Shown piece by piece: positions 48,978 to 57,419 of a stretch of DNA of 64,000 bases. The translations under genes and the position numbers were made by a program. The DNA is from Planctomycetota bacterium (GTDB lineage Bacteria; Planctomycetota; SZUA-567; H5-PLA8), in the NCBI GenBank assembly GCA_038227875.1, contig JBBRPR010000004.1, positions 96,001-160,000 on the forward strand. Reading direction: 5' to 3'. The first letter of the stretch is position 1. Every line of letters starts with the position of its first letter. A model generated the notes under the pieces. It searched no databases. It had not been told where the DNA came from and was given only the letters and a program-made list of their open reading frames with translations.

Positions 48978-49009
48978 ATGGATAGTCCATCAATGGACTA
49001 ACCATAATA
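48978..49009 (-). promoter_or_regulatory. Tandem operator palindromes overlapping the -10 of the beta-helix gene
   Basis: ATGGATAGTCCAT (48978-48990) and ATGGACTAACCAT (48993-49005); minus-strand TATTAT at 49004-49009. Confidence 0.55.
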
Positions 49010-49093
49010 CACTGTTTTTGCACGGGTGAAGAGGTTTCTGAACTAAATCTCGTGCACGTGTGCAGTTGAAATTGGGTTGAACGGGCGTGGATT

Positions 49094-50146
49094 TCAGACA
49101 GGGTCTATCGCGGCGATGACTTCGGACGACAGCACTTTGTGAATCGGCGTGGCATTCGGTTTTTCCAGCCGTTGCAAAACCAGATCGGCCGCCGCTTCAG
49201 CCACTTTCCGCCAGGGCGCGACGCAGAACGCGACCAAACCCTTGACCGTATTTTCGCGCGGTTGGTCTGCGAAGCAAATGGTCTCAAAGGTACGCCCACG
49301 TTTCGGCGTCATTCCGCGCGATGCTTCCAATGCGCCAAGCGCTTGTTTTTCGGAAAAACAGAGCAGGGCCGTGGGCGGTGACGACAGTTCGAACAACCGC
49401 TGCGTTACAAGCTTACTGCTGATTGGTTCGGCCCAGCTCAGGCACTGATAGTCCGGATTGACTTCCAGTTTCAGTTTGCGCAGCGCCGCGAGATAACCGT
49501 CGCGGCGGAGTTTCGAATTCGGCCATTCGTCCTGTTCGGTCTTTCTAAAACAGCCGAGATACCCGATGCGCCGGTGCCCTTTTTCATAGAGGAATTCGAC
49601 CGCTTTCTGCGCGCCGGCGACGTTGTCGATCTCCACGCCGTCGACGCCGTCGACGAACGAACCGAAATCGACGGTCACTCTGGGAGAATGCATCGCCGTA
49701 CCGTTGAGCGCCTCCGCACCAACCGGCCCGACCACCACAATCGCGCGCGGTTGCGTCATGTCGTCCTGGATCGAACTGGTGAAGATCAGCCCGATGCCCT
49801 TGGCAGCGAGGCGGGATTCGAGCACCGACAGAACCAACGCGTAGCCGGGAAAAATCGAGAGCGGGTCATTGAGATAAAACAAAAATTTGACCAGCCCGCG
49901 CGACTTCACCTTCTCCGTGACAAAGGTGCCGCCCGGCGGACGCTTTTCGATCAGCCCTTCGGCTTCGAGTTCCGAAAGCGCCTTGGAGATGGTGACGCGG
50001 CTGAGCTTGAATTCCTCCGAGAGCACCCGCTCCGTCGCCAGTTGCGACCCCGCCGGCCAACGGACCTGCTTCAACAGAATATCTTTGATCACCGCCTTGA
50101 ACTGCTTGTAGACAGGATCGCGCACGATCTTTGAGGAGGAATCCAT
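49094..50146 (-). CDS. GntR-HTH plus LacI/periplasmic-binding-fold regulator (AraR-like)
   Basis: PVYKQFK...WPAGSQLATERVLSEEFKLSRVTISKALSELEAEGLI, then DNVAGAQKAVEFLYEKGHRRIGYL and PPTALLC. Confidence 0.9.
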   Translation of the reverse strand: MDSSSKIVRDPVYKQFKAVIKDILLKQVRWPAGSQLATERVLSEEFKLSRVTISKALSELEAEGLIEKRPPGGTFVTEKVKSRGLVKFLFYLNDPLSIFPGYALVLSVLESRLAAKGIGLIFTSSIQDDMTQPRAIVVVGPVGAEALNGTAMHSPRVTVDFGSFVDGVDGVEIDNVAGAQKAVEFLYEKGHRRIGYLGCFRKTEQDEWPNSKLRRDGYLAALRKLKLEVNPDYQCLSWAEPISSKLVTQRLFELSSPPTALLCFSEKQALGALEASRGMTPKRGRTFETICFADQPRENTVKGLVAFCVAPWRKVAEAAADLVLQRLEKPNATPIHKVLSSEVIAAIDPV

Positions 50147-50154
50147 GAGCGCGA

Positions 50155-50183
50155 AGTATAGCGTGGGTAAATGGACTGTCCAT
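50155..50183 (-). promoter_or_regulatory. GntR promoter with autoregulatory palindrome
   Basis: ATGGACTGTCCAT at 50171-50183 over the -35 region; minus-strand TATACT at 50155-50160, 8 nt before the ATG. Confidence 0.55.
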
Positions 50184-50196
50184 ATTGGTGTAACAA

Positions 50197-51837
50197 TCAG
50201 CCAATCTGTTTTGGCAGTGCATCGAAGGCATGCTGGAGCGATTTCGCCTGACCGGGATTGACCATGGCGACGTAGGCAATCATGCCTTGGAGCCATGCTT
50301 CGAAGTGCGGCAGCTTTGCACGGTTCTGCGCGGCGAGTCCCTCTTTGCCGGCGCGATGAAGAATCGCGCGGAGTCGGCGGGCGAGTTTGCGCGGAACACC
50401 GGGGCGCCGGTTGACAACGATGCCCGTCACCATTTGCGCGGTGTTGGCGCGTTGAATGCGCGTCTTCTTTTCGTTGACGTCGAAGCCTTCGTGTTCGGCG
50501 ATGTGACGGATGCGTGCCAGGAGATAGCCGCTCTTTGCAGCCGCGTCGTGGCTGGCGGAAAATGTGAGATCATCGGCGTAGCGCGTGTAGGTCCAGCCGA
50601 GCTTTGTGGCGATGCCTTTCAAGCGGCGGTCCATCCGGCGCGACGCCAGATTGCTCAGCGCGGGGCTGGTACAGGCGCCCTGCGGCAGCACGCGCGGGCC
50701 GGTGGCGACGTGGTAGACGGTGCCGGCGTACGTCACGGATTTTCGAGGAGACTCCGTGCACAGCAGCGCGAAAATCGTGGCCACGGCCGGGGAGTATCCA
50801 AGCTTCTTGAAGATTCCGCGCACACGGCGGAACGAAACGGTAGGGAAGAAATCCTTCAGGTCCACGTTCACCACCACATTTTGGCCGACGTGCGGCGTCG
50901 CGTTGGTCAAGGTGTTGTGTCCGGGGGTAAATCCGTGTGCGCATTCGGGAATTTCAATGCGCTTGAGAATCTGATTGTAAATCCACTGCTGGCAGCGGGC
51001 GAGATCGCGGTGCGGTGCCGACAATTCGCGCGTCCCACCGCTCTTCTTGGGCACGGTGAAGGTGACGTAATGCGTGCGCGTTGCCGTCTCGGCATGAAAC
51101 GCCAGCCAGCGCAGCCGCTTGATGGACAACTCCAGTGCCTGCGCCACGTCCGCCGGAGTAGCCAGCAGCGGCAGATGAGCGGCGGTGAGCGCTTCGACGT
51201 TCGCGCGGCGATCGGCCAGGCCCTTCGACACGCCGCGTCCCAGGTAGATGATGTCGGTGGCCTTGCGCTGCGCCACGCCTTCGGCGTGTTTCAGTTTGCG
51301 AGCGGCAGCCTCCGCTTTTTTGCGCGCTCTCAGTTCCGCGCGCTCCTGCTCGTTTTGTTTCACAGCCTGCCGCGCCTGGGCTTCGGCATGGGCCAGGTCC
51401 GGCTTCAGGCGCGCCATTTCGTCGCCGATTTTGTGCGCTTCGAGAAGCTGTTCGGGCGTGATCAGTCCGGCGCCGACCATGCCGCGGTCGATGATCTCCG
51501 TACGCGGATCACTGGCCGGCGGAATGAGATCGCGGCGGCCGAACCACGGACTGGAGAAGCGCGAGGTGAGCGCCTTCGCGCGTTTGTTTAATTCATCGCG
51601 GCTCAGCGGCGCGAATTGAGCGAGGTTGAGATTGAGCGTGACCGGTTTGGGCTGCGGCCGGGGTGGCTGACCCGACGCGGGCGCCGCCGGTGCAGTCCGC
51701 GGGGAATTCTGTGGAGCGGGATTCGCGCGCGTTAAACTCGATGCGGTCTGCGGAGCAGGCGCCGCCGGTCCGGCGGGGCGTTCCGGCGCTTTAGCCGGGC
51801 CGAAAAGAAATTCGCGCAACCAATCCGCCAAACCCAT
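50197..51837 (-). CDS. Retron-type reverse transcriptase (Mx162/Mx65-like, long N-terminal extension)
   Basis: PKKSGGTRELSAP, region X NATPH (NAxxH), DLKDFFP, LPQGACTSPALSN, YTRYADDLTFS and region Y QMVTGIVVN. No maturase or endonuclease domain. Confidence 0.93.
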   Translation of the reverse strand: MGLADWLREFLFGPAKAPERPAGPAAPAPQTASSLTRANPAPQNSPRTAPAAPASGQPPRPQPKPVTLNLNLAQFAPLSRDELNKRAKALTSRFSSPWFGRRDLIPPASDPRTEIIDRGMVGAGLITPEQLLEAHKIGDEMARLKPDLAHAEAQARQAVKQNEQERAELRARKKAEAAARKLKHAEGVAQRKATDIIYLGRGVSKGLADRRANVEALTAAHLPLLATPADVAQALELSIKRLRWLAFHAETATRTHYVTFTVPKKSGGTRELSAPHRDLARCQQWIYNQILKRIEIPECAHGFTPGHNTLTNATPHVGQNVVVNVDLKDFFPTVSFRRVRGIFKKLGYSPAVATIFALLCTESPRKSVTYAGTVYHVATGPRVLPQGACTSPALSNLASRRMDRRLKGIATKLGWTYTRYADDLTFSASHDAAAKSGYLLARIRHIAEHEGFDVNEKKTRIQRANTAQMVTGIVVNRRPGVPRKLARRLRAILHRAGKEGLAAQNRAKLPHFEAWLQGMIAYVAMVNPGQAKSLQHAFDALPKQIG

Positions 51838-51871
51838 GAACCGTTCCTATAAATGGAGCGTGCAAAAAAAC

Positions 51872-52099
51872 CGGGCGGGAGCGGCGGCCTTCTGACTTCT
51901 TCCCTATGACCAAGGTCGTTCACCCAAGAGCCAGCGACCAGTGTCGCCGGGTAAACTCTCGGGTTGTTCATGGTCCCGGCGACACTGGTCGCTGGCTCAC
52001 CACGCACAACGGCCTTGGGGACGCATGTACAGGCCAAATGCAACCACGGCGGAACACCGTAGTAGAACTTGTCTCAGTCGGCACGCGCGCTCCCACCCG
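51872..52099 (-). ncRNA. Retron msr-msd non-coding RNA
   Basis: 12-nt terminal arms (52088-52099 and 51872-51883, one G-U pair), msr hairpin 52044-52062, perfect 24-bp msd stem (51928-51951 and 51975-51998), outer stem (51910-51920 and 52008-52018). Lies directly upstream of the RT. Confidence 0.85.
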
Positions 52100-52116
52100 A
52101 AGCAGCATTGAACTTC

Positions 52117-53817
52117 TTATTCACCTTTAAAGAGATATCCAAAGTCGTACCAACGGTCTGATTTCTCCGCAACTCCACTCTTGCCGCTGCGCCAGACCAA
52201 CGCGCGCAACGCCAGCAAATGACGGCATGGCCCCCTGCGGATGCCACCGCGCTGATGATGGATGCACAGGCATTTTCCCCGGCGGATGCGGCCGTCGGGG
52301 TCGATTAGCAATTCGATGGGCGTGCTTTCGGAATTGCCGATGTAAAGCTTGCCGCCGTTGGGCGCGTCCTGTGTGGACTCCAGTTTGACGCGGCCCCTGG
52401 CGATGATTTGACGCGAGGCGATCAGCTCGGGATTCTCCGGGCCCATCTGATCTTCGCCCAGCGCCATGGGCATGATCTGACGCCAGCGGTAGCGCGCGGC
52501 ATGCAGGTCGTAGATCAATTGCCCGGAGTGCGCGAGTTGATTTAACGCCGCAGCCGTTTCGGCAGGACTGGCCGGCACGGTGGCATTGATTTCCGCGAAC
52601 GTCGACGCCTTGGATTCACGAACGCAACGCGAGACGTCGTAGATCATCTGCCGCGGCACTTCCGCCGTCGGCGCGAGCAGATCCAGCGCGCTGCTGCTGG
52701 TCCAATCGTTGGCCGTCCAGCCGGAGAGGCCCAGTGTCAGGCGCATTTCGCCCATGTTGGCGACCCAGAAATGCGGCATTCCGGTGCCCAGCAGATAGAC
52801 ATCCAGGCTCTCGATCAGTGGCAGCAAGCGGGCGAGCACCAGCAGGCGGCGCGTGCCCCAGACGCGGATGGGTTCTCCGCCGGGTCCGTTGTAAACCACG
52901 CCGTGTGCGACAACCGGTTGCTCCCAGGGCTCCAGCACCAGGCGCGGCGCCTGCCCGGGAATCAGTTCAAAGCGCAGTGCCCGCGGGCTTGACCGTGCCT
53001 TGTGGCGCTTGAGCCAGGCGCAAATGGAATATAACACTTCGCGCGTGAGCGTGACTTTACGCATGGGCAAACCCATCGCGCTTTGAATCTGCATGAAGCC
53101 GCGCAGCCACGAAGGCGGCAGGTCGATTTTCTCTTCGCGGTAATCGGCATTGCCCGCGGTGGCGACGCTGAATCCGGCGGGATCGATGCGGAAGCGCGTT
53201 TCCCTGTAGGAGCGCAGGCCCTGGAAATGATTGTAGAGATCCCAGGAGTAATCGACGTTGGTGGTACCGAACTTTTCGCCCTCGGACTTTCCAAAGGCGT
53301 CGCGCTGCACGGTCAGGCAGCCGTAGCTGGATTCGTCGGCCGAGAAACATTCGAAGAACACCACGTCCGGCGCCACGGTGATCACCGGATCGCAGGGCAT
53401 CAACAGCCGCCACATTTCCTGATCGTTTTTGAGCAGGTAGTTGGAATACTTCAGGCGGGCGTCCCAGTAAAGCCGGCGCTGCCGTTCGAATTGCCGTTCG
53501 AAGTCAGCGGGGACGGGCTGGTCCCGTTGCTTCAGGATGTCCACTTTCGCGCGCTCGTATTCTTCGCGCTGAAGATTTGCCATCCGCTCCTGTTCGCGCT
53601 TTTTCCATTCGTCATACGCGCTCTTGTCGCGCGGCTTGAAGCGCAGGTCGTTGATCACTACGTCGTGAAGCGCGGAGACGGCTTCGCGGAACCGCAGGGG
53701 CTTCAGCAATTGCGCGTCGAAAGCAACAGGATCGCGGGCGAGATTGGGCGAGAGGCTGAGCACCTTGCCCTCGCCGCGCAGCGCGCTGCGTCCGAGGTAG
53801 GCGAATTTGACGTTCAT
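52117..53817 (-). CDS. Retron-associated winged-helix plus SWIM zinc-finger protein
   Basis: C-terminal CLC-x(12)-CRH SWIM motif and wHTH-like AAALNQLAHSGQLIYDL..ARYRWR. N-terminal DPVITV...FFECFSADESSYG. Confidence 0.85.
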   Translation of the reverse strand: MNVKFAYLGRSALRGEGKVLSLSPNLARDPVAFDAQLLKPLRFREAVSALHDVVINDLRFKPRDKSAYDEWKKREQERMANLQREEYERAKVDILKQRDQPVPADFERQFERQRRLYWDARLKYSNYLLKNDQEMWRLLMPCDPVITVAPDVVFFECFSADESSYGCLTVQRDAFGKSEGEKFGTTNVDYSWDLYNHFQGLRSYRETRFRIDPAGFSVATAGNADYREEKIDLPPSWLRGFMQIQSAMGLPMRKVTLTREVLYSICAWLKRHKARSSPRALRFELIPGQAPRLVLEPWEQPVVAHGVVYNGPGGEPIRVWGTRRLLVLARLLPLIESLDVYLLGTGMPHFWVANMGEMRLTLGLSGWTANDWTSSSALDLLAPTAEVPRQMIYDVSRCVRESKASTFAEINATVPASPAETAAALNQLAHSGQLIYDLHAARYRWRQIMPMALGEDQMGPENPELIASRQIIARGRVKLESTQDAPNGGKLYIGNSESTPIELLIDPDGRIRRGKCLCIHHQRGGIRRGPCRHLLALRALVWRSGKSGVAEKSDRWYDFGYLFKGE

Positions 53818-55601
53818 TTCTTCGCCTCCAGGGTTGCAGCTTCGAGTTGCAATTCCGGAACGAAGCGCTGGATGCTGCCGGCAATTTCCGGCCGTGCACC
53901 TGCTGCCGCAACCAACGCCGCCAGCCCCGCACGCGCTTCAGACGGACGCACAGAACGCACCGCCACGGCCAACACCGGAAGCAGGTCGACGGCGCGCTGC
54001 GGATTTTCCAGGATCGCCGCGCCGATCTGGCGCACGGCCTTGCCCTTCTGCCGTCCGCCGCGGTGCACACCCAGGAGCACCGCACACCAGACCGGAATCA
54101 GCACGTCGGCGCTGGTGCCCGGCAATTTCGAGCGGACTTCGAGCAGATCGACGAGTTTCAGGCGCACGTCGTCGTAGGGTGTTTCCACCATGCGCGCCCA
54201 GAGGCCCGCGTCGTCGAAAGCGGCGGCCGAATTCGGTGTTCCGGAGACGATCCACTGCCACGCCGCGCCGCGAATTTCGGGTTGCAGGCTGTCGAAGAAA
54301 CGGGAGATCAAATCGCGCACATAGACGTCGCGCCCGCCGAGAATTCCCAGCGCCCACTGGCCCAGCTCCGCGCCGATGGCGCCGCAGCGTGCGGCGGCAA
54401 CCGCGGCGATGGCTTCGCGGTCTTCCGGCGATTCGATGCGTTTGGCTTTCAGCAGCGTAAATCCCAATCGCGCGACGGGCGCGGCGCGTTCGCAGGTCAT
54501 TTCGATCGCCTGCGCCAGTTCCAGCCGCTCGGGCTGGACGAACTTTACAAAGCAGTCGGCGATGATCTGGAGCGCGCTGAGATTGCGCGTCTTCAACAGC
54601 CGCAGCCAGCCGCTCACGGGAAGTTTTTCGAGCCCCGCCGCCGTTTTCAGCAATTCCGCGCCGAAATGCTGGACCTCTTCGTCCTCGTGATCGAGCAGCT
54701 TCAACAAGTCCTCAGGCGAGGCGCCGTGCAGTGCGTCCTGATGCGTGGCGCGCAGCAGTTGGATACTCCAGACGCGCACCAGCCGCGCCTTTGCGTCGGT
54801 GACGAGATTCAGCAGCAGCGGCGCGCACTCGGTTTTGGACCACAGCTTGGGAAACGCGGGCGCGGCGGTGAGATCCGAAAGCCCGCGGTTCTCTTTCAAT
54901 TTGATCTGCGCGGCGCCGAAGAGCAACGCGTCATGGCGCATGAAACAGGCGTGCAGCAGCGACCATGAATCCAGGACGTTGGGCCCGCTCGCGAGGGACT
55001 CGTCGGTGTAGAGCGCCAGCGCGCGTGCAATCAGCGCCGGGTATTCGTTGGGTCGCTGGAAACCCGCGCGCCGGAAATACCGCCACGCGCGGCGACGGAG
55101 GTAATATCGGGTGCTGTAGGAGAACAGCATAAAGCCGTGGCGATTTCTCACCTTGCCGGGCACCGAGACAATGGCGCCGGTCTTGGGATTGCGCGCGGTT
55201 GTGGGCCGGTAGGCATTGCGGGGTGCATAGAGATGTTCGATCGGCACCGCGCGGCGCTCTTCGCGATTCCAGGCGTGGCGCGTGCGGAGGGACCGGCGGA
55301 CCAGCCCGTCGAATCCGGCGAGGAACACCGCCATCAATTCATCGTCTTTGCGCGCTTCGGCGTGCTTGAACAAGCGTTTGACCAGTGGCTGATGGCCGTT
55401 GCGGTCGAACGGCATCGCCGCGTAAGCCAGCATCTGCTGCCGCGCCCACGGTCGCGGGTCCTTCTTCCAGCGTTCGGCCAGACCGGCGAGTTTTTTGGAA
55501 TCGTTTACGTTCCGCAATTCGTCGACAAAGCGCGAATCTTCGGCGTTGAAATACTCATCCATCAGCAACGATGAGCCGGAATTCGCCGACGGAAGCGCCA
55601 T
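53814..55601 (-). CDS. Retron-associated HEAT/ARM-like helical repeat protein
   Basis: LLKLLDHEDEEVQHFG, FFDSLQPEIRGAAW and MVETPYDDVRLKL repeats. ATGA overlap with the SWIM gene. Confidence 0.8.
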   Translation of the reverse strand: MALPSANSGSSLLMDEYFNAEDSRFVDELRNVNDSKKLAGLAERWKKDPRPWARQQMLAYAAMPFDRNGHQPLVKRLFKHAEARKDDELMAVFLAGFDGLVRRSLRTRHAWNREERRAVPIEHLYAPRNAYRPTTARNPKTGAIVSVPGKVRNRHGFMLFSYSTRYYLRRRAWRYFRRAGFQRPNEYPALIARALALYTDESLASGPNVLDSWSLLHACFMRHDALLFGAAQIKLKENRGLSDLTAAPAFPKLWSKTECAPLLLNLVTDAKARLVRVWSIQLLRATHQDALHGASPEDLLKLLDHEDEEVQHFGAELLKTAAGLEKLPVSGWLRLLKTRNLSALQIIADCFVKFVQPERLELAQAIEMTCERAAPVARLGFTLLKAKRIESPEDREAIAAVAAARCGAIGAELGQWALGILGGRDVYVRDLISRFFDSLQPEIRGAAWQWIVSGTPNSAAAFDDAGLWARMVETPYDDVRLKLVDLLEVRSKLPGTSADVLIPVWCAVLLGVHRGGRQKGKAVRQIGAAILENPQRAVDLLPVLAVAVRSVRPSEARAGLAALVAAAGARPEIAGSIQRFVPELQLEAATLEAKK

Positions 55602-55754
55602 AAACTTTGCTCGCGAGAATAATTTTTTCGGATACGTGAATCACTCTTACTGGCTGGACCGTGCCTCGTCAATAATGGAATCGCGCCAATCGGCGTTGCG
55701 CTTTCCGCATTCCGGCGATTCGAATTTCTGCGCTGCTGCATTATCATCCCAACC

Positions 55755-57419
55755 ATGCCCCTTCACCGCTCGTGGCCTGCCTGGATTATGGCGGGGATTT
55801 TGTTTGCTTATGTTGTGTATCCCGTCGGCGCGATGCTCGGGCAAAGTCTCACGTTGCCGGTCAGTGAATACCGCGCCGACGAGATGGGTTGGAATCCAGA
55901 CCGGCAACCCTACGGCGCGCCGCTGCGGCGGCTGGCGGCGGAAAACAATGCGCTGGAGGCGCTCCGGCGTACGGCGGTGCTTGCGCTGGCGACTGTGCTG
56001 CTCGGCAGCGCGTGGGGCGGGGGACTGGCGCTGCTGTGGTGGCGGCGCGAATTTCCCGGCCGGCGTATTTTCGCGGCGCTGGGGTTTGCGCCGATTCTGC
56101 TCCCGCCGCTGGTGGGCACGATTGCGTTCTTCCGGCTGATTGGCGAAGGAGGCGCGCTCTGGCGACTGCTCGGCAGTGACGGGCGGCCGTTGTTGAGCGG
56201 CTTCGGGCAGGTGCTGATCGTTCATACGTATTCGTTCGGGATTTATGCGTACGCGTACGTCTCGGCGGCGCTGGAAGATCTCGACGTTTCTCAGGAAGAA
56301 GCGGCGCGGAGTCTCGGCGCGTCGGGGTTGCGTGTTTTTCTCACGTCCGTCTGGCCGACGATCCGCGCGCCGCTCCTGGCCAGCGCGTTCATCACGTTCA
56401 TGGCGGCGGCGGCGAGTTTCACTGCGCCGTATTTGCTCGACAACAGTCAGCGCTACCTCACCGTTGAGATTCTGAACAACGAAGGCGATCCGGGCATGCA
56501 ACGCGCGCTCAGCGTGGTGCTCGCCGCGCTGGCGTTGCTGGCGCTGCCGGCGTTTCTCTACATCAATGCGCGTGGAAAATTTGGCGACGATGTGGCGCTG
56601 AGCGTCAAGGGCGCGGCGCGGCGAGAGCTTCCGCCTGTGCATGGCGCCCGGGCGGCGCTGCACGTCGCGGTCTCGTGCGTCGCAGCGGTGATTCTCCTCG
56701 CTCCGCCGGTCACGGTGGTGATCAGCGCATTTGGCGCGCCGACGACGCCGCAGAATTCGTACACGTCGCTGCTGGGCGCGGTGGCGAGTTTGAACTTTGA
56801 CGACTGGAGTTCCATGGGGCGCAGTGCGCTCTATGCGCTCGCGGCGGCCGCGCTGGATATTGCCGTCGCGCTGGGTATCGCCTTGGCTTTACGCCGCAGC
56901 CGCGTGCTGCCGGCGACGCTGGTGGAATTTGCGGTGATGCTGGCCCTGGCGCTGCCGGGCAGCGCACTGGCGATCGCACTGCTCTCGGTTTTCAACGGAC
57001 GTTCGCTGCTGGCGTTTGGTGTGCCGCTGGGCGGCACGGGTGCGATCTTGATTCTCGCGTACTTCATCCGCGATCTGCCGCTGGCCGTGCGGCCCGTGCG
57101 CGCGGCGCTGAGTGCACTCGGCGCGAATCTGGAACATGCAGCGGCGGGCCTGGGCGCGGCGCCGATCAGCGTGCTCTGGCGCGTGACGCTGCCGCTGATG
57201 CTGCCGTCGGTGATTGCGGCGGCGCTGATTTGTTTTATTACCGGGCTGGGCGAATATGTGGCGTCAAAGTTACTGTATGGTCCGCTGACACAACCGGTCA
57301 GCCAGCGCATCGAAGAACTGTCCCGCAGCAGTCCGGCGTCCGGCTATGCTTTGGCGCTGTGGCTGATGCTCGGCAGCGCTGCGGTGATTGGGATTTCGCG
57401 GGTGGTTCGGAGGAGATGA
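55755..57419 (+). CDS. Iron(III)/thiamine-type ABC transporter permease (FbpB-like, duplicated TM domain)
   Basis: Two EAA loops (EEAARSLGAS and EHAAAGLGAA) and many TM segments. Confidence 0.9.
   Translation: MPLHRSWPAWIMAGILFAYVVYPVGAMLGQSLTLPVSEYRADEMGWNPDRQPYGAPLRRLAAENNALEALRRTAVLALATVLLGSAWGGGLALLWWRREFPGRRIFAALGFAPILLPPLVGTIAFFRLIGEGGALWRLLGSDGRPLLSGFGQVLIVHTYSFGIYAYAYVSAALEDLDVSQEEAARSLGASGLRVFLTSVWPTIRAPLLASAFITFMAAAASFTAPYLLDNSQRYLTVEILNNEGDPGMQRALSVVLAALALLALPAFLYINARGKFGDDVALSVKGAARRELPPVHGARAALHVAVSCVAAVILLAPPVTVVISAFGAPTTPQNSYTSLLGAVASLNFDDWSSMGRSALYALAAAALDIAVALGIALALRRSRVLPATLVEFAVMLALALPGSALAIALLSVFNGRSLLAFGVPLGGTGAILILAYFIRDLPLAVRPVRAALSALGANLEHAAAGLGAAPISVLWRVTLPLMLPSVIAAALICFITGLGEYVASKLLYGPLTQPVSQRIEELSRSSPASGYALALWLMLGSAAVIGISRVVRRR

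Follow-up and report, generated by a model that had tools for sequence, protein, structure and literature searches.

Positions 50,197 to 55,601 of a 64,000-nucleotide stretch of a Planctomycetota bacterium (assembly GCA_038227875.1, contig JBBRPR010000004.1; the whole stretch is called the window below) hold three genes and a structured intergenic gap. Do these make up a complete retron, in which a reverse transcriptase (RT) and a non-coding RNA (ncRNA) are joined by partner proteins, and if so, what might the partners do? Judged by its sequence, the locus is a type XIII retron, intact and carried by a Planctomycetota chromosome, of the form in which the HEAT/ARM-repeat partner has no WGR domain. 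The earliest retrons to be discovered, Mx162 and Mx65, are of type XIII. The type was classified by Mestre et al. in 2020 (PMC7736814), and in the accessible text of that paper it corresponds to RT clade 10, with Retron-Mxa1/Mx162, Mxa2/Mx65, Sau1/Sa163 and Nex2/Ne144. In the accessible part of a 2026 metagenome survey it is the third most abundant retron group with 143 candidates, and 26 type XIII candidates are placed in Planctomycetota (PMC13712802).

As a catalogue entry the locus is ordinary. Its interest lies in the biology of type XIII, for which the searchable literature holds no demonstrated function, effector chemistry or structure, and in two leads: a predicted clamp fold in one partner and a PARP/Macro operon at a sister locus. 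The window locus is a clean, compact example of three genes plus one RNA, suited to cloning. A preliminary description, made from the sequence before this analysis, had called the architecture catalogued and its mechanism not established. Both statements stand: Mestre et al. describe the type, and no functional test of it was found in searchable literature.

Identity of the locus

The three proteins are matched nearly end to end by PADLOC type XIII models, each with an E-value below 1e-150. The HEAT/ARM protein was hit by PDLC02922 HEAT-ARM_XIII (1.2e-192, profile positions 3-560 of 564), the SWIM protein by PDLC02972 SWIM_XIII (1.7e-184) and the RT by PDLC02956 RT_XIII (2.2e-158, 526 bits). 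All three open reading frames (ORFs) are intact and co-oriented on the minus strand (Table 1), and 279 nt (51838-52116) separate the SWIM and RT genes. This layout, with the ATGA overlap of the first two genes and the structured gap, is as the preliminary description had read it, and its central claim of a complete multi-component type XIII retron was borne out by the models. We regard the assignment to type XIII as almost certain.

Table 1. Features of the retron locus, with positions in the window
Feature	Position	Strand	Basis
HEAT/ARM-repeat partner, 595 aa, predicted alpha-solenoid, WGR-less	53814..55601	-	PADLOC HEAT-ARM_XIII, AlphaFold2 (AF2) model
ATGA stop/start overlap of the HEAT and SWIM genes	53814..53817	-	Direct reading and ORF coordinates
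SWIM partner, 566 aa	52117..53817	-	PADLOC SWIM_XIII, alignment, AF2 model
Retron ncRNA msr-msd, ~240 nt	51864..52103	-	nhmmer envelope, fold, 36-locus covariation
a1 arm	52080..52098	-	Pairs with 51872-51888 in the minimum-free-energy (MFE) fold; inverted repeat I4
Putative priming (branching) guanosine	52073	-	First unpaired G after a1/a2 and the CUGA/UCAG stem
msr hairpin (ACGGUG-UUC-CGCCGU)	52043..52063	-	9 bp, A3 columns 45-53/57-65
msd long hairpin, 24-bp perfect stem and 23-nt apical part	51928..51998	-	Inverted repeat I1, 100% complementary
a2 arm, then T-run	51872..51888	-	MFE fold and inverted repeat
Retron RT, 546 aa, N-terminal extension of ~210 aa	50197..51837	-	PADLOC RT_XIII, Pfam, motifs

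The RT gave the sole Pfam match among the three proteins, RVT_1, which covers residues 262-463 at 3.6e-19. It contains the motifs SGGTR (266), NATPH (NAxxH, 312-316), PQG (385), YADD (420-423) and VTG (470-472), so that the YADD, NAxxH and VTG motifs reported in the preliminary description are indeed intact. NAxxH and VTG are marks of retron RTs. Each of the closest solved RTs belongs to a retron (Ec86, 1.6e-40; Ec67, 9.3e-32).

An RT of another class, from a group II intron, a diversity-generating retroelement or the Abi/UG groups, was considered as well, as was a decayed remnant of a retron. Weak sub-threshold matches to the Drt2 and Drt3a models were detected, and in NCBIfam both the retron and the group II matches stayed below threshold throughout. 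The group II maturase model TIGR04416 scored 68 bits against a cut-off of 300, however, compared with 526 bits for RT_XIII, and the next PADLOC model, RT_other, reached 340 bits, 186 lower. The presence of NAxxH and VTG, the three intact ORFs, the conserved ncRNA and the nearest solved RTs also speak against these alternatives. Taken together, the model scores, the covariation of the ncRNA and the nearest solved RTs effectively refute both possibilities.

The N-terminal extension of the RT (residues 1-210, window positions 51200-51837) starts with some 75 residues of low complexity, rich in Pro and Ala. The match to the RT_XIII profile begins only at residue 139, and relatives align from about residue 30-42.

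No WGR domain was found by Pfam on any of the three proteins of the locus, in agreement with the preliminary description, and the four WGR matches of the genome all lie on other contigs. The WGR_XIII match on the HEAT/ARM protein is confined to the HEAT part of that profile (positions 243-497 of 973). From the missing WGR the preliminary description had supposed that the locus may be a compact variant, but it is not a new one: in the accessible table of Mestre et al. a WGR-like domain belongs to HEAT/ARM cluster 216_1 only, and clusters 216_2, 259, 1688 and 3262 need none (PMC7736814). By that table WGR is optional for type XIII, and membership of the window locus therefore stands. The WGR-less form is already catalogued and has its own PADLOC model, PDLC02922, which makes the locus a further example of a kind classified in 2020.

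With the described type XIII retrons the locus shares the RT family, a SWIM/DEDE/winged-helix partner, a HEAT/ARM partner and an ncRNA with a long msd hairpin adjoining the RT. It differs from them in its host, which is not from Myxococcota or Bacillota, and in its gene order, HEAT-SWIM-ncRNA-RT; from the WGR-bearing members it differs also in the HEAT/ARM protein. Retrons Ec86 (type II-A), Ec78/Ec83 (type I-A), Eco8 and Ec67 have a homologous RT core and the same logic of RT, ncRNA and partner, but their partners are unrelated, those of the window having no NDT, ATPase, HNH, Toprim or OLD domain. The host is a member of Planctomycetota to judge by the adjacent glycyl-tRNA synthetase, whose named best matches (74-86% identity) all come from that phylum; the preliminary description had thought a planctomycete probable.

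The components also travel together in relatives. Counts were drawn from 86 related loci, each limited to those with enough flanking sequence. Of 52 loci with at least 1900 nt upstream of the SWIM gene, 49 have a co-oriented HEAT gene there; of 49 with at least 1500 nt downstream, 44 have an RT gene. An ncRNA match was detected downstream of the SWIM gene in 41 of 58 loci with at least 700 nt, and upstream of it in several others. The preliminary description had stated beforehand that homologous RTs without these partners would speak against a retron; the partners do accompany them.

The RNA between the SWIM and RT genes

The gap folds at -143.8 kcal/mol (z = -7.46), and none of 200 shuffles was as stable. 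For comparison, ncRNAs from 36 loci (6 in named genomes and 30 in metagenomes) were analysed using nhmmer, MAFFT and RNAalifold. The consensus contains compensatory double changes in 28 of its 44 pairs. In the msd core, 17 of the 18 consensus stem pairs covary and the sequence is essentially free; in the window the arms of the perfect 24-bp stem are 51928-51951 and 51975-51998. All 36 loci preserve the 9-bp msr hairpin around GUUCCGCC, save for two single broken cells, and pairs 45/65, 47/63 and 48/62 show changes on both sides. On this covariation the ncRNA is under structural selection.

The a1/a2 pairing was missed by RNAalifold, the variable arms being out of register in the MAFFT alignment, and it was tested sequence by sequence instead. 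The window duplex has 19 pairs at -40.2 kcal/mol, equalled by 0 of 200 shuffles. Across the 36 loci the medians are 19.5 pairs and -37.7 kcal/mol; the duplex beats all 200 shuffles in 35 of them, and in the remaining locus 2 of 200 shuffles were as good. The guanosine at 52073 (position 31 of the window row) is invariant in 36/36 aligned ncRNAs, and the UGA/UCA closing pairs of the short CUGA/UCAG stem next to it are invariant or nearly so. Only by likeness to other retrons do we infer that this guanosine may prime reverse transcription.

In a search of positions 49000-57000 against all Rfam families, no family matched the ncRNA. The msd hairpin drew two mir-21 matches of chance level, both under the gathering score (E 0.31 and 0.59).

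The ncRNA cassette is doubled or tripled in some related loci, mostly in tandem; the copies have a common scaffold, their own a1/a2 arms and entirely different msd hairpins (L073, 1611-2091; L065, 1930-2904; L058, 345-812 and 2607-2695; L085, 2461-3162, with the look-alike L086; L075, 5563-5976 and 8765-8959). In more distant relatives (L020, L059, L062, L067, L068, L069, L080, L084, L087 and others) the ncRNA match directly precedes the SWIM gene, and the position of the RNA gene in the operon is therefore not fixed.

Public sequencing runs, examined as assembled Logan contigs, also contain parts of the locus. In an assembly of what is likely the source sample, two contigs cover it (50197-52000 and 51972-55601) and break inside the msd palindrome, and a relative's contig from a peat run omits the hairpin from 51924 to 52002. 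Short-read assembly graphs seem to break at this long perfect hairpin. A metatranscriptome of an unrelated study yielded contigs matching 51994-52138 and 52391-52541 (0 differences) and 54484-54697 (4 differences). The first spans a1 and the msr as far as the base of the msd hairpin, and most of the locus is uncovered there. Carry-over of DNA is possible in this sample, and the contigs at most hint at transcription. In two other public runs, the small shares that match stem from relatives.

Folds predicted for the two partners

The SWIM protein was modelled with AF2 from a 47-sequence alignment reaching down to 27% identity (predicted local distance difference test score, pLDDT, 80.4; predicted template modelling score, pTM, 0.75). 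The model contains a clamp protomer (~30-368), a winged helix (386-450), a small beta domain and a SWIM zinc finger (C516/C518/C531/H533). Two topologically repeated beta-alpha-beta-beta-beta domains make up the predicted clamp part, one protomer in all, and a helical insertion of about 85 residues (~56-140) sits in the first. By VIA-align the model resembles PCNA (3aix_A) with Z 19.2 and a root-mean-square deviation of 2.9 A over 233 of 245 residues, 9-1-1 subunits with Z ~17 (17.1) and bacterial beta clamps with Z ~14; about 30 clamp entries scored above Z 11. All 50 rows shown by Foldseek were PCNA-type clamps (E ~2e-9, probability 1.00). The 'DEDE' region of the SWIM partner is hence predicted to be a complete PCNA-type clamp protomer.

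The likeness to PCNA, 9-1-1 and beta clamps (3aix, 8p9o, 7sgz, 1vpk) lies in this predicted two-domain fold. The SWIM protein differs from them in sequence (8-14% identity), in the helical insertion of domain 1 and in the fused C-terminal winged helix and SWIM finger. A PDB search with the SWIM profile found no sequence-level match to solved clamps; it gave two marginal winged-helix matches, eS25 (0.0045) and TFE (0.0088). PDB sequence searches likewise found no solved structures of partner relatives. The modelled winged helix has fold matches of up to Z 9.8, including DprA (3maj, Z 8.4) and Z-alpha domains. When the clamp domain (residues 36-366) was submitted to complex prediction as a trimer, both runs scored 0.00, which bears neither way on ring formation. 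Among the matches listed in searchable literature, no paper linking retrons with PCNA or sliding clamps was found.

The preliminary description had suggested that the large N-terminal domain of the SWIM protein may be an undescribed catalytic effector. It is not undescribed: the accessible text of Mestre et al. gives the primary protein of type XIII (cluster 114_1) a Dx7[D]x4Ex30-32Dx37E 'DEDE' motif, a DprA-type winged helix and a CxCx12CxH SWIM finger (PMC7736814). From the motif those authors proposed a transposase-derived DDE/DEDE nuclease, a toxic effector, and SWIM fingers are found in MuDR-type transposases (PMC7736814). The window protein does have the spacing D143-x7-D151-x4-E156-x32-D189-x38-E228, followed by C516-x-C518-x12-C531-x-H533, and all 47 aligned sequences keep E156, with D143, D189 and E228 nearly invariant. 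In the model, however, these acidic residues (143-228) lie on strands and turns of the first predicted clamp domain, and no RNase H-like or transposase chain was among the 50 rows shown, by Foldseek or VIA-align. To our knowledge no clamp-fold protein is an enzyme. Such a placement fits a transposase-derived nuclease poorly, although it would leave room for a grafted metal site, and we consider the nuclease quite improbable. Because the region is predicted to be a clamp and clamps are not known to be catalytic, the catalytic effector of the preliminary description has become less likely too.

Across the 47 sequences, D161 and the four SWIM ligands are invariant like E156, and E162 is nearly invariant. 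D143, E156, D161, E162, D189 and E228, a conserved acidic patch on the predicted clamp domain, form the best candidate functional site, for binding of a metal or a partner. Residues 234-248 (window ~53074-53118) are a strongly conserved helix with P234, an invariant W237 and G240 (consensus PxSWxRGFLQVQSA). In the model this helix takes the place of what we take to be the partner-docking site of PCNA, the interdomain connector loop, and it is a candidate interface.

The HEAT/ARM partner was predicted with higher confidence (pLDDT 87.9) to be almost wholly helical, with a small beta insert at 104-146. Its fold matches are generic helical repeats only (PP2A-A, importins, designed repeats; Z at most 10.7), and there was no PDB sequence match. 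It is predicted to be a plain alpha-solenoid scaffold.

Possible functions and a PARP-linked sister locus

How could these parts work together? The RT would prime on the 2'-OH of the invariant G (52073) and copy the msd, and the product would be a branched multicopy single-stranded DNA (msDNA) of roughly 120-130 nt carrying the 24-bp stem. That the window retron makes msDNA is, in our judgement, highly probable. The SWIM protein, with its predicted clamp protomer, winged helix and zinc finger, would bind the msDNA, probably by shape, since the msd stem is hypervariable yet always paired. The prediction of these three elements points to msDNA recognition and away from a nuclease; binding through the clamp and winged-helix part specifically seems to us an evenly balanced proposition. 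The alpha-solenoid HEAT/ARM protein may bridge the SWIM protein to the RT; in the accessible text of Mestre et al. the RT co-evolves more with the HEAT/ARM protein than with the SWIM protein (PMC7736814). By analogy, the complex of RT, msDNA and partners would stay silent until a phage factor disturbs the msDNA or the complex, and would then act as a tripwire leading to a stop of growth or replication. Neither partner shows an enzyme fold, and the proposal names no effector chemistry. We lean slightly towards an anti-phage role, again by analogy with other retrons, and think the whole chain, from retron identity to that role, somewhat likelier than its failure.

Several points weigh against this proposal. 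No phage defence by any type XIII retron was found in searchable literature. Pfam and fold comparison revealed no enzyme, toxin or nuclease fold in either partner, much as the preliminary description had said of nuclease and toxin domains. The flanking genes encode the glycyl-tRNA synthetase, a sigma factor, AnmK, DprA, a glycosidase and an ABC permease, so the neighbourhood is one of housekeeping genes and no defence island. The partner folds are predictions (pLDDT 80 and 88), and msDNA, its binding and the priming G are steps that we infer. In the accessible text of Mestre et al., there is a moderate correlation of type XIII with host 16S (0.78), and vertical inheritance and a possible non-defence role are suggested (PMC7736814).

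Such a role is the substance of the main alternative, in which the locus is a genuine type XIII retron that has been domesticated, its msDNA and clamp-like protein serving host DNA metabolism or regulation. The 16S correlation, the housekeeping neighbours and the lack of a toxin-like domain all suit it. So does the strong conservation of the partners: SWIM homologues have 61-100% identity and nearly constant length (at least 120 among the matches listed). A clamp, a winged helix and the PARP and Macro proteins of the sister locus, moreover, belong to the vocabulary of DNA-damage signalling. However, the distribution of SWIM_XIII is patchy and accessory-like, which fits an accessory set better than a core function: it was found in 3 of 41 relatives (the window genome included) and, across Planctomycetota, in 27 of 401 sampled genomes and 22 of 288 genera. 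The window genome and genome G008 hold two diverged copies each, and a hypervariable msd stem is a trait seen more often in conflict systems. As far as we know, every retron characterised to date is a defence system. Weighing both sides, we find a role outside defence unlikely, if far from negligible.

The compact architecture is present in Verrucomicrobiota metagenome-assembled genomes too. In a SWIM tree of 10 rows, the compact and the PARP-linked clades split at 100/100, and the forks within the compact clade are unsupported; no claim of horizontal or vertical inheritance is therefore made.

The PARP-linked clade includes a second, diverged type XIII retron of the window genome, located on contig C83 (L012, 4007-13202, minus strand). 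Its SWIM and RT proteins are 35% and 50% identical to those of the window locus. The gene order is ADP-ribosylglycohydrolase, PARP, Macro, an 846-aa HEAT/ARM protein, SWIM, a gap and RT; gaps of 13-30 nt are given for the first four junctions, and the overlap between the HEAT and SWIM genes measures 11 nt. The PARP of this operon (501 aa) has WGR, PARP_reg and PARP catalytic domains. Its alignment to human PARP4 scores 1.6e-50 and that to PARP2 2.3e-26, and it retains the HGS, YF and E positions of the catalytic site. In these domains and positions this protein, which belongs to the sister locus only, resembles the DNA-dependent PARPs (human PARP1/2/3 and PARP4), from which it differs in being bacterial and in sharing an operon with Macro, HEAT/ARM, SWIM, ncRNA and RT.

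The PARP-Macro-HEAT-SWIM-RT arrangement recurs on G008:C105 (L013) and G162:C161 (L102), so that with C83 it is known from three genomes of two families. In G162:C161, which is from a different family, identities are 63% for PARP, 62% for Macro, 60% for SWIM and 59% for RT. The ADP-ribosylglycohydrolase gene is found in the C83 arrangement only. Within the phylum sample PARP is rare, with four places in 3 of 401 genomes; two of the places are retron-linked, and two are unrelated PARP-like genes on short contigs. No link of retrons with PARP or Macro was found in searchable literature.

The sister locus, with its apparently intact PARP and Macro proteins, points to NAD+/ADP-ribosylation as one possible output, a lead that concerns this locus and not the one in the window. 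It suggests that a PARP and the WGR element of classical type XIII can stand in for each other in reading the msDNA, ADP-ribosylation being one output. A broader and rather doubtful extension would make type XIII a bacterial counterpart of clamp/PARP DNA-damage signalling with msDNA as the ligand. The SWIM protein would be a PCNA-like clamp loaded with msDNA, the HEAT/ARM protein an adaptor, and WGR, fused to HEAT in the classical form or carried by the PARP beside a Macro eraser in the sister locus, would read the msDNA end. In the WGR-less form of the window the acidic patch would provide the output.

Two minor observations concern the surroundings of the window genes. A promoter and terminator scan of positions 49800-56000 gave counts within shuffle expectation (2 vs 1.4; 8 vs 7.7), and its result was not used. 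Downstream of the RT gene lies a minus-strand ORF (49094-50296) for a regulator with a GntR-type helix-turn-helix and a periplasmic-binding fold, whose first ATG would overlap the 3' end of the RT gene by 100 nt. A later in-frame Met at about 50146 (counted on the translation) would abolish the overlap; the GntR match starts at residue 74.

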